Source of the DNA: Escherichia phage ES2-BCU-3
Direction: 5' to 3' (one strand)
Length of the DNA stretch: 53,728 nucleotides
Sequence record: PV733669.1
Shown here one piece after another: positions 48,459 through 49,793 of this stretch (its first letter is position 1; each line of letters starts with the position of its first letter). Both the position numbers and the translations under genes were made by a program. The notes below the pieces were generated by a model that was not told the DNA's origin, searched no databases, and worked only from the letters and a program-made list of their open reading frames with translations.

Positions 48459-48887
48459 ATGGTTAACATTCGAGTAAAAGGCCAAAACTTTGAGCGTAAA
48501 ATGGCAAAAAAATTCAATGAATCATTTGGATTGAGTGTTGAACGCAATCTTCAACAGTCTATTAATGGCGGGGATGACTTACTCGGGGTACCGTTTTTCA
48601 GCGTTGAGCTTAAAAAACACAATACAAAAGCCATCGGTACGTGGTGGCGTCAATGTGAGGAGTCAGCAAAGCGTCATGATAAGACGCCTGTACTAATATA
48701 CGAACTTCCACGCCAAAAGCCAGTCGTTGTAATGCGACGCAGTGACGTGGATGTTGGTATATTACCACTTGGTACAACTTTCAAAGAGGCAACTAACAGG
48801 CTCTTTGTGGGCTTGGTAGAGCTAACATGGGAACAATTTTGCCAGGTCTACAACTTTTACGTTGCGCCTGGCGTTGATGTCAGTTAA
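48459..48887 (+). CDS. Hjc-like Holliday junction resolvase (PD-(D/E)XK), putative
   Basis: KGQNFERKMAKKF...G and DDLLGVPFFSVELKK parallel archaeal Hjc motifs KGxxxER and D...ExK. Confidence 0.5.
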   Translation: MVNIRVKGQNFERKMAKKFNESFGLSVERNLQQSINGGDDLLGVPFFSVELKKHNTKAIGTWWRQCEESAKRHDKTPVLIYELPRQKPVVVMRRSDVDVGILPLGTTFKEATNRLFVGLVELTWEQFCQVYNFYVAPGVDVS

Positions 48888-49068
48888 CAGGTTTTAGCTC
48901 GTCGCAGATAACACGCTGGTTTTGTGCAGGCACTAATCCCAGTTCTAACAAAGTGTATGGACTATCGGCAGCACATTGTTCTACGGTAGTCCATTCAGGT
49001 TTCGCTTCGACAACTTTGTATTCACAGTCGTGTGCAGCGATACAAGTAGCAAGAATCAAACCAATCAT
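48880..49068 (-). CDS. Hypothetical small protein
   Basis: 62-aa ORF with hydrophobic N-terminus. Confidence 0.4.
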   Translation of the reverse strand: MIGLILATCIAAHDCEYKVVEAKPEWTTVEQCAADSPYTLLELGLVPAQNQRVICDELKPVN

Positions 49069-49314
49069 TTATTTACTCCTGATGCCAAGTTTATTGAACA
49101 ACCAAATACACATATCAACCCAGGTTACTGGTACAGTTTTCGGGGGTTGATAAGACCATGCTTTTGCAGCTCGCTCCGCATTTTCTTCTCGCCTGCGCGC
49201 TTGGCGTAATACTTGACTGTCAGTAATGCCGGCAGAAAAAACATCGGCAATGTGAGATAAATCGCGTCGATGAACACGTCCAACCAAATCATTCAGTTGC
49301 TCCTCAGAAAACAT
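49069..49314 (-). CDS. Hypothetical protein
   Basis: 81-aa ORF; GGAG RBS. Confidence 0.45.
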   Translation of the reverse strand: MFSEEQLNDLVGRVHRRDLSHIADVFSAGITDSQVLRQARRREENAERAAKAWSYQPPKTVPVTWVDMCIWLFNKLGIRSK

Positions 49315-49426
49315 AACTCAACACCATACATACGATAACAATACCAATTACAATCCGCCACATGCTACGATTAACAGCATATACCGGATTCTCAGTAGTA
49401 TACTCAACAACATGTTTACGGACCAT
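49304..49426 (-). CDS. Small hydrophobic peptide (40 aa), not in the ORF track
   Basis: ATG at 49426 preceded by AAGGAGG (6-nt spacer); encodes MVRKHVVEYTTENPVYAVNRSMWRIVIGIVIVCMVLSYVF with one TM-like helix; stop TGA 49304..49306. Confidence 0.4.
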   Translation of the reverse strand: MVRKHVVEYTTENPVYAVNRSMWRIVIGIVIVCMVLSYVF

Positions 49427-49448
49427 AATCGGCCTCCTTGTGGGTTAA

Positions 49449-49493
49449 TTCAATCATGAGGACTTTCATCAAATCCTCATTGTTGAATTACTC
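49449..49493 (-). promoter_or_regulatory. Conserved-flank intergenic hairpin (early operon element 1)
   Basis: Minus strand reads GAGTAA-TTCAACA-[ATGAGGA...TCCTCAT]-GATTGAA; 7-bp stem between the upstream stop and the next RBS. Confidence 0.5.
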
Positions 49494-49793
49494 ATCATCA
49501 GCAGTATAATTGGAAATATCTTCCGCCAATGTTTCAATGTCAAACACCGCATTCAAGAAAGAATGCTCAACAACAGCTTTATCAAGTTCATCATCATAAT
49601 AAAGCTCAATGTAACTACCATACAACTCTTCTACACTTTCAATTGCAGGATAAATCTCATGCACTGCAGCATAGAAATCATCAAAATTATCAAAACAACG
49701 ACAATTTGTCAACTCTTGACCTTGCATCATTTCAACTAACTCATTAGTCAGATAAAAATAGCAATTGTGCTGGTTAATAATGAATGGTGTCAT
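49488..49793 (-). CDS. Hypothetical acidic protein
   Basis: ATG at 49793 with GAGGAGAG RBS (track ORF starts at TTG 49820); strongly acidic. Confidence 0.5.
   Translation of the reverse strand: MTPFIINQHNCYFYLTNELVEMMQGQELTNCRCFDNFDDFYAAVHEIYPAIESVEELYGSYIELYYDDELDKAVVEHSFLNAVFDIETLAEDISNYTADDE

Follow-up and report, generated by a model that had tools for sequence, protein, structure and literature searches.

Near one end of the genome of Escherichia phage ES2-BCU-3 (PV733669.1; the window analyzed here is the whole stretch of 53,728 nucleotides [nt]), the minus strand carries an open reading frame (ORF) of only 40 codons, which is preceded by a strong ribosome-binding site (RBS) and would encode a peptide with a single transmembrane (TM) helix. 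The locus raises a twofold question: is so short a frame a gene, and what might a phage gain from such a small membrane protein? The window represents a Loughboroughvirus genome; over the 2 kb compared, its identity is 99.4% with Salmonella phage S144 and 98.9% with ZCSE2. We find that the gene is real and is already catalogued as a phage membrane protein. We further propose, with confidence that is about evenly balanced, that its product is an early, membrane-tethered ligand of a conserved host protein on the cytoplasmic side of the inner membrane, serving as an accessory factor in host takeover or counter-defense.

Evidence for a gene under purifying selection

The frame opens with an ATG at 49426-49424 and closes with a TGA at 49306-49304, and its product is MVRKHVVEYTTENPVYAVNRSMWRIVIGIVIVCMVLSYVF. 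As the initial annotation of the locus had described, the Shine-Dalgarno (SD) sequence AAGGAGG stands 6 nt before the ATG. A perfect AGGAGG placed 4 to 10 nt ahead of the start was found for 1 of the 157 ATG-initiated ORFs of 30 to 60 amino acids (aa) across the window's six reading frames, namely this one, the chance level in mononucleotide shuffles being a mean of 0.29.

Conservation was followed in 16 distinct relatives, comprising members of Loughboroughvirus and Rosemountvirus, fHy-Eco03, Erwinia phage SOI901 and one IMG/VR contig. Each of the 16 has the ORF with its ATG and a strong SD, which pairs to the anti-SD at -9.3 to -11.4 kcal/mol; further metagenomic loci covering the region again have the peptide ORF upstream of the same 81-aa gene. 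Frame, SD and the junction with the downstream ORF are kept in 20 related loci. The pooled Nei-Gojobori ratio of nonsynonymous to synonymous substitution (dN/dS) is 0.47 in the frame of the peptide versus 1.02 and 1.49 for the two alternative frames. Within the peptide, the ratio is 0.39 for the N-terminal 20 codons and 0.55 for the TM segment, and parsimony changes on a neighbor-joining tree fall at codon positions 1, 2 and 3 in the numbers 47, 35 and 62. The initial annotation had made its call dependent on conservation of the frame among related phages; frame, start, SD and TM segment are kept in every relative examined, and purifying selection is seen in the peptide's own frame alone. By these sequence measures, the 40-codon ORF is a genuine gene under purifying selection.

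The description of the ORF as unannotated applies to the gene track used there alone, as public records already list the identical protein as S144 ORF73 (QMV47897.1), with an RBS feature and the TMHMM-derived note “transmembrane domain - N in C out.” The homologs ZCSE2 gp61, SE4 gp75 and BP63 gp05 bear the RefSeq label “membrane protein,” and the homolog in phage birk, gp17, is assigned to the pVOG family VOG6014. The gene is left uncalled in the records of VB_ST-SA173, PK3 and Klebsiella phage KLB24. In the window, too, the ORF should be called, in line with the hypothetical membrane protein that public records already carry.

A widespread phage family with a shared motif

The peptide matches the PHROG family phrog_10979 (“membrane protein”) with an E value of 1.1e-16 and 61 bits, its residues 4 to 40 covering positions 3 to 39 of the 39-position profile. 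It is a direct member of the family defined by PHROG 10979 and VOG6014 (S144 ORF73, ZCSE2 gp61, SE4 gp75, BP63 gp05, PVP-SE1 gp187 and fHy-Eco03 gp06), with which it has length, motif and C-terminal TM helix in common. The category given to PHROG 10979, “moron, auxiliary metabolic gene and host takeover,” is a label and not an experimental result.

Searches with tblastn recovered homologs in 101 phage records, in 80 of them at full length. Rosemount/Loughborough-type genomes account for 61 of the 101; outside this clade, the matches include the ~145-kb Seunavirus myoviruses PVP-SE1 (gp187), SSE121, 4MG, GAP31 and FENT2, the 48-kb phages PMBT28 and PSA28, and a 40-kb Klebsiella siphovirus (KLB24-like). 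A word-indexed protein search with so short a query returned 4 relatives only, and an exhaustive hidden Markov model (HMM) search of 1.84 billion cluster representatives was therefore needed. It gave 28 matches at an E value of 1e-3 or below, of which 24 are genuine peptides of 32 to 55 aa; the other four, strong matches to long proteins, were discarded as translations of tandem repeats. An IMG/VR search yielded essentially the same isolates again.

The 24 peptides have a common build, with a basic N terminus, the motif phi-E-Y-T-T-x-N-P-[AV]-Y-x-E-[GS]-[RK]-x-M-x-[KR], a run of 16 to 19 hydrophobic residues and then the end of the protein. The peptide of the window has the core of this motif, E-Y-T-T-x-N-P-[AV]-Y...R/K-x-M, followed by its single C-terminal TM helix. 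An alignment of 27 members shows no variation at Y9, N13 or M22 and at least 90% conservation of P14 and Y16. The amino acid motif is kept at 31 to 64% identity across unrelated genomic contexts that lack the genes lying downstream in the window.

No family member turned up when 185,579 representative genomes of bacteria and archaea were scanned with two patterns; hence, the family seems to be confined to phages, with no copy seen in prophages. The peptide has no match in Pfam-A (E value up to 1), NCBIfam or PADLOC, and PADLOC finds no defense-system match for it or for its three downstream neighbors. A profile search of all PDB sequences returned only a fragment of DprA at an E value of 1.2, which we rejected as a chance match. 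A literature search on the family identifiers and on tail-anchored phage miniproteins found no functional study.

Predicted topology of the miniprotein

The single TM helix named in the initial annotation is borne out: the most hydrophobic 18-mer of the peptide, WRIVIGIVIVCMVLSYVF, spans residues 23 to 40, has a mean Kyte-Doolittle value of 2.34 and reaches the C terminus. Across 30 members, TM hydrophobicity is kept throughout, and basic residues are confined to the N-terminal flank in every one (mean of 3.9 lysines and arginines), with a C-terminal flank that is nearly absent (mean of 0.6 residues, 0.03 of them basic). Under the positive-inside rule, the basic N flank and the near-absent C flank predict a C-tail-anchored protein with its N terminus in the cytoplasm, which matches the TMHMM note in the S144 record.

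Residues 1 to 22 hold the conserved, basic and predicted cytoplasmic motif, K-H-V-V-E-Y-T-T-x-N-P-x-Y...R-x-M. AlphaFold2 (AF2), given the family alignment, modeled one helix from P14 to residue 39 and an extended segment at residues 1 to 13, with a predicted local distance difference test (pLDDT) score of 86. The conserved part is thus predicted to present a free strand, K-H-V-V-E-Y-T-T, and an N-P-capped juxtamembrane helix on the cytoplasmic face. With a TM helix this close to the C terminus, insertion into the membrane is likely to be posttranslational, by analogy with the small membrane protein YohP, for which such insertion is reported (PMC7549839). The tryptic peptide of the miniprotein is HVVEYTTENPVYAVNR.

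Genomic setting and likely time of expression

In the window, the gene lies in the leftward cluster that is named cluster E (ORF71-80) in S144, a group of small genes of low guanine-plus-cytosine (GC) content beside the physical genome end (PMC7432712). The neighbors of the peptide gene mostly encode small, acidic, soluble proteins. T5-like phages carry their pre-early genes in terminal repeats. A comparable layout is seen in fHy-Eco03, in which the homologous small-gene region lies inside a direct terminal repeat of 3,699 bp with 11 genes (PMC8145870). Such a repeat is documented for fHy-Eco03; for S144, we infer it. From this location, it follows that in fHy-Eco03 the cluster genes probably enter the cell before all others and are probably also the earliest that the host RNA polymerase expresses. 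The likeness to the T5-like genes rests on gene layout, as there is no homology to T5 genes. As a related observation, the whole small-gene cluster of fHy-Eco03 (176-2689), including the peptide and resolvase genes, lies inside the repeat and is therefore present in two copies per virion genome; the vB_SalM_Sz record has the peptide match at two places, and the window has a single copy.

Candidate promoters are compatible with early transcription. Besides the sigma-70-like candidate of the window (Table 1), consensus matching gave TTTACx-17-TATAAT at 86 nt, with up to 11 of 12 positions matched, in BP63, birk and KE24, and, in four unrelated contigs, promoter-like sites that precede the peptide gene by 23 to 34 nt. 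The PVP-SE1 record has an annotated promoter. The “early operon” of the initial annotation can accordingly be read only from context, that is, from a low-GC cluster of small genes near the genome end or terminal repeat and from sigma-70-like promoters, which together suggest it.

Elsewhere, the surroundings of the gene change. In two divergent siphovirus lineages (the peptides P0008, in the KLB24-like loci L024 to L027, and P0013, in L048), it stands directly after the tape-measure gene and before tail-L. The siphovirus peptide genes occupy ~4001-4114 in L024 to L027, 898-1011 in L048 and ~2501-2610 in L031. Siphovirus members have a promoter-like site, TTGACA-17-TAAGAT, 31 nt upstream, and in L024 there is also a hairpin ahead of the ATG. 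Judged from this gene order, the siphovirus arrangement is moron-like. The downstream genes differ completely between the PVP-SE1, PMBT28, siphovirus and Rosemountvirus/Loughboroughvirus contexts, and the peptide gene therefore seems to behave as an independent, mobile cassette, carried by unrelated phages of Enterobacterales and often preceded by a sigma-70-like site of its own. A PHROG scan of ten cassette neighbors from the other contexts gave no informative function.

A proposed ligand of a host protein at the inner membrane

A host-membrane effector, one of the roles that the initial annotation had considered, is disfavored in the damaging sense by a published screen. The homolog fHy-Eco03 g06, 63% identical and cloned as a complete ORF, was not depleted in Escherichia coli, with a next-generation sequencing (NGS) ratio of 2.43 and plating at 0.68 of the control (PMC8145870). 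Since this homolog is nontoxic, a membrane-damaging role is unlikely. Gp06 is unreported in the virion proteome of fHy-Eco03 (PMC8145870), as expected for a nonstructural protein.

Instead, we propose that the peptide would be made early by the host RNA polymerase, inserted posttranslationally into the inner membrane and tethered there by its C-terminal TM helix. The strand K-H-V-V-E-Y-T-T and the N-P-x-Y helix cap, with Y9, N13, M22 and the near-invariant P14 and Y16, would then dock on a conserved host protein, and this docking would modulate or neutralize the host protein while leaving the membrane undamaged. We prefer a host target to a phage target because the motif is common to phages that share hosts and differ in virion type (53- and 145-kb myoviruses, 40- to 48-kb siphoviruses) and because the conserved face is cytoplasmic.

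Parallels exist among bacterial proteins. AcrZ, MgtS, MgrB, YohP and Prli42 are small single-TM regulatory or tail-anchored miniproteins of bacteria. Like the phage peptide, such miniproteins have fewer than 50 residues and a single TM helix and are nontoxic, and they bind a larger membrane-associated protein; they differ from it in being encoded by chromosomal genes, whereas the peptide family is phage-only and has no sequence in common with them. Small membrane proteins are the subject of two reviews (PMC12648545 and PMC7549839).

Several points weigh against the proposal. The topology on which it builds is a prediction. A dN/dS of 0.47 indicates moderate constraint only, with substitutions counted in 16 related sequences. 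The nontoxicity of g06 comes from one homolog in one screen, and production of the peptide was unverified in that study (PMC8145870). The promoters are consensus matches, and several clade members have no site above the threshold. Finally, the placement directly after the tape-measure gene in two siphovirus lineages favors a role in superinfection exclusion.

Superinfection exclusion and other readings of the peptide

In such a role, which the initial annotation had also raised, the peptide would block entry of a secondary genome from its place in the inner membrane, by way of the tape-measure/ejection channel or a host entry factor. The inner-membrane location, the probable early expression and the nontoxic homolog would all suit it, as would the moron-like site with its own promoter-like sequence in the siphoviruses. 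A precedent is T4 Imm, a small, early, inner-membrane protein of a virulent myovirus; according to a 2026 preprint, it excludes by binding the tape-measure protein (bioRxiv 10.64898/2026.03.06.709160). In the peptide family, two siphovirus members adjoin the tape-measure gene, and a nonlethal accessory role of this sort is plausible for the peptide. The two proteins nevertheless differ in build. Imm has 83 residues, a multihelix membrane core and a periplasm-facing N terminus (bioRxiv 10.64898/2026.03.06.709160), whereas the peptide has 40 residues, one TM helix, a predicted cytoplasmic N terminus, no periplasmic part and no similarity to Imm or to another protein family in Pfam.

The topology speaks more broadly against exclusion, with practically no periplasmic portion in the family and a conserved part that is predicted to be cytoplasmic. 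Sp, SieA and HK97 gp15, in contrast, act at or across the periplasmic face. Moreover, the motif spans diverse virion types and genome sizes, with tape-measure proteins that are presumably unrelated, which speaks against a phage-specific target. In the siphovirus members, gene and promoter-like site stand as a unit after the tape-measure gene, as in HK97 gp15-like morons; in the window, the gene sits in a small-gene cluster. Further, typical moron exclusion genes occur in prophages, and neither pattern scan of the 185,579 representative genomes found a prophage copy of this family. On balance, we consider exclusion, the main rival to the host-ligand proposal, a possible but rather improbable function.

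A lysis-related function, as a holin, antiholin or pinholin-like protein, or a membrane toxin of the Hok/TisB type, is suggested by the small size, the single TM helix and a weak, nonsignificant match to the holin PHROG phrog_689 (E value of 0.46). The PHROG and Pfam scans of the peptide gave no significant match to a holin family, the lysis cassette of S144 (ORF34-37) lies elsewhere in the genome according to the S144 paper, the homolog g06 is nontoxic, and the one TM helix comes without a periplasmic or C-terminal charged domain; we regard this function as very improbable. That the frame has no functional product, being either a mere leader cistron that delivers ribosomes downstream or a chance ORF, might be thought from its shortness and from the overlap of its 3' end with the next start, but it is just as hard to credit and is effectively refuted by family-wide conservation, seen in the motif kept where the downstream genes are missing, the frame-specific selection and the TM hydrophobicity of all 30 members.

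Two overlapping frames downstream and the identity of a reported toxin

A different kind of explanation looks to the genes that follow. The 11-nt overlap with the next gene noted in the initial annotation is correct for an 81-codon ORF starting at 49314 (ATGTTTTCTGA), but the term “next gene” is itself ambiguous, as a 55-codon ORF is nested within that ORF in another frame (Table 1). The nested ORF matches phrog_28081 with an E value of 8.4e-26, and its own SD pairs with the anti-SD at -5.8 to -8.9 kcal/mol in all relatives. The 81-aa ORF lacks an SD (pairing of -2.8 kcal/mol in 16 of 16 relatives). The geometry of the junction is conserved, with the ATG of the 81-aa ORF 11 nt before, and that of the 55-aa ORF 11 nt after, the end of the peptide stop (both distances being 14 nt in SE4). 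Given the missing SD and a start always at this distance before the end of the stop, we infer termination-reinitiation from the peptide cistron to be the only plausible route by which the 81-aa ORF could be started, so that the translational coupling suggested by the initial annotation is plausible. In the Rosemountvirus/Loughboroughvirus clade, the peptide gene would accordingly have a second, cis-acting role, in which ribosomes ending at its stop feed the SD-less 81-aa ORF while that same stop overlaps the SD of the 55-aa ORF.

Neither downstream frame is interrupted in any of the 16 relatives or in five additional metagenomic loci. L052, the most divergent of the five, keeps the SD and starts the nested ORF with a TTG at the same position. 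All three ORFs occur together in 20 of the 20 clade loci whose DNA was examined, and the 81-aa and 55-aa proteins are found only together, in the same 61 records of one clade. Within the overlap, the 55-aa frame has a dN/dS of 0.47, compared with values of 1.45 for the 81-aa frame and 0.97 for the third; parsimony changes in the 55-aa frame number 28, 30 and 47 by codon position, and the per-site rate is half that of the flanks (0.64 versus 1.26 and 1.16). The tail of the 81-aa ORF, its last 18 codons past the nested stop, has a dN/dS of 0.12, with parsimony changes of 15, 5 and 39. Synonymous recoding of the 55-aa protein leaves the 81-aa frame open about 1% of the time, and the converse recoding leaves the 55-aa frame open 20 to 45% of the time. 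These patterns suggest that both overlapping frames are genes.

Two mechanistic variants were considered. A hairpin that sequesters the SD and is opened by translation of the peptide was dropped, as folding of the junction of the three ORFs showed no structure beyond chance (z score of -0.56). A programmed -1 frameshift leading from the 55-aa frame to the 81-aa tail finds no canonical X_XXY_YYZ heptamer at the conserved CCCCCGAAAAC. Nor would it account for an 81-aa frame that is already open at its own ATG, which chance would allow about 1% of the time; we keep the frameshift only as a minor alternative. The AF2 model of the 81-aa protein is of low confidence (pLDDT of 69, predicted template modeling score of 0.28).

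About 60 Rosemountvirus/Loughboroughvirus GenBank records differ in their choice between the two frames. The 55-aa ORF is called in S144, BP63, birk, KE24, LPSEYT and SenM-1, the 81-aa ORF in ZCSE2, SE13, IntR, AV127 and fHy-Eco03, and the SOI901 record has N-terminally extended versions of both. The choice bears on a published result. The fHy-Eco03 homolog of the 81-aa ORF, g05, was the most toxic of 32 genes screened (NGS ratio of 0.003, plating of 0.16), and it arrested growth upon arabinose induction (PMC8145870). From its forward primer (…ATGTTTTCTGAGGAGCAACT), the toxic clone included the nested ORF together with its SD (PMC8145870), so that the identity of the toxin is ambiguous between the 81-aa and 55-aa proteins. 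The published toxicity of g05 and its proposed link to RecG are therefore not assignable to the 81-aa protein alone.

The peptide might thus be the dedicated partner of this toxic locus, as an antidote, an anchor or a dosage regulator for the 81-aa product, the 55-aa product or both, within a coupled module. The strictly conserved junction, the strong toxicity of the g05 clone beside the nontoxic g06, the joint occurrence of the three ORFs in the 20 clade loci and the pairing of the two downstream proteins in 61 records speak for such a partnership. The peptide family, however, is wider (101 records) than the two downstream proteins, and the genes downstream of it in PVP-SE1, PMBT28 and the siphoviruses are unrelated both to these and to each other; the conserved motif is hence not specific for this toxin. 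In addition, g05 was toxic as a clone of its own. We think a dedicated partnership improbable. As for the clade itself, it is conceivable, though we would not expect it, that the peptide gene heads a three-ORF translational switch, in which ribosomes would split between back-reinitiation on the 81-aa ORF and the nested 55-aa start and the products would form a host-shutoff or toxin-modulator pair.

Other features of the region

A conserved intergenic RNA hairpin precedes the SD of the peptide gene (Table 1). The 86-nt stretch containing it folds at a free energy of -26 kcal/mol, with a z score of -3.95 and none of 200 shuffles as good. The fHy-Eco03/SOI901 clade has a stem of different sequence at this position; both bases are replaced in 6 of its 9 pairs without loss of pairing, a fully compensated change that counts as one evolutionary event. 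An intrinsic terminator was ruled out, the hairpin having no U-tract, and scanning the region against Rfam yielded nothing but chance matches below threshold, placing it in no family there. It may serve in RNA processing or stability, for instance as an RNase III site or a 5' stabilizing element.

The 62-aa ORF that follows the 81-aa ORF (phrog_32337) begins with its ATG abutting the 81-aa stop (TAAATG) and at its 3' end runs 8 nt into the convergent resolvase gene. Its product has a hydrophobic N terminus, MIGLILATCIAA, that is not a canonical lipobox, and four cysteines, and it may be a secreted or membrane protein. Most Rosemountviruses, as well as ZCSE2 (gp59, at ~1166-1363) and BP63 (gp03), have an extra gene of ~180 to 198 nt between the 62-aa and 81-aa ORFs; it is lacking at ~49068/49069 in the window, and likewise in S144, and this absence explains why the aligned stretches of the window and ZCSE2 differ in length by 193 bp. 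The gene described as a “RusA-like resolvase” matches the Pfam family PF24608 (PDDEXK_15, phage putative PDDEXK endonuclease) with an E value of 6.8e-18 and also the RusA-like PHROG 244. Its fHy-Eco03 homolog was detected in virions by liquid chromatography-tandem mass spectrometry. Apart from this adjoining PDDEXK/RusA-like resolvase, Pfam, NCBIfam and PADLOC searches of the peptide's neighbors returned nothing.

Table 1. Coordinates of the peptide gene, its signals and adjoining features in the window
Feature	Coordinates	Strand	Basis or remark
40-codon coding sequence; predicted tail-anchored inner-membrane miniprotein	49304..49426 (including TGA)	minus	ORF, PHROG 10979 match, dN/dS
SD of the 40-codon ORF, AAGGAGG	49433..49439	minus	6-nt spacer CCGATT, then ATG
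Conserved intergenic RNA hairpin	49447..49489	minus	Between the upstream stop (TAA 49490-49488) and the peptide SD; folding and covariation
Sigma-70-like promoter candidate, TTGACA-17-GATATT	49515..49543	minus	Consensus match, 10/12; 88 nt from the end of the -10 to the ATG; immediately precedes the hairpin
SD of the nested 55-codon ORF, GAGGAG	49300..49305	minus	Overlaps the peptide TGA
81-codon ORF	49069..49314	minus	ATG within the last codons of the peptide; homolog of fHy-Eco03 g05 and ZCSE2 gp60
Nested 55-codon ORF; predicted N-terminal TM helix and basic tail	49125..49292	minus	+1 frame relative to the 81-codon ORF; PHROG 28081
62-aa ORF	48880-49068	minus	phrog_32337
“RusA-like resolvase” gene	48459-48887	plus	PF24608, PHROG 244

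Implications

The dual-frame locus next door matters more, and is more unusual, than the peptide gene itself. The toxic product of the fHy-Eco03 Gp05 locus and the RecG-related mechanism proposed for it should be reexamined; if the three-ORF switch were true, the “Gp05” toxicity would belong to, or need, an overlooked nested membrane protein. As for the peptide, its tail-anchored design is unusually clean and easy to test, and the presence of one short cytoplasmic motif in otherwise unrelated enteric phages points to a shared host target that is worth identifying.

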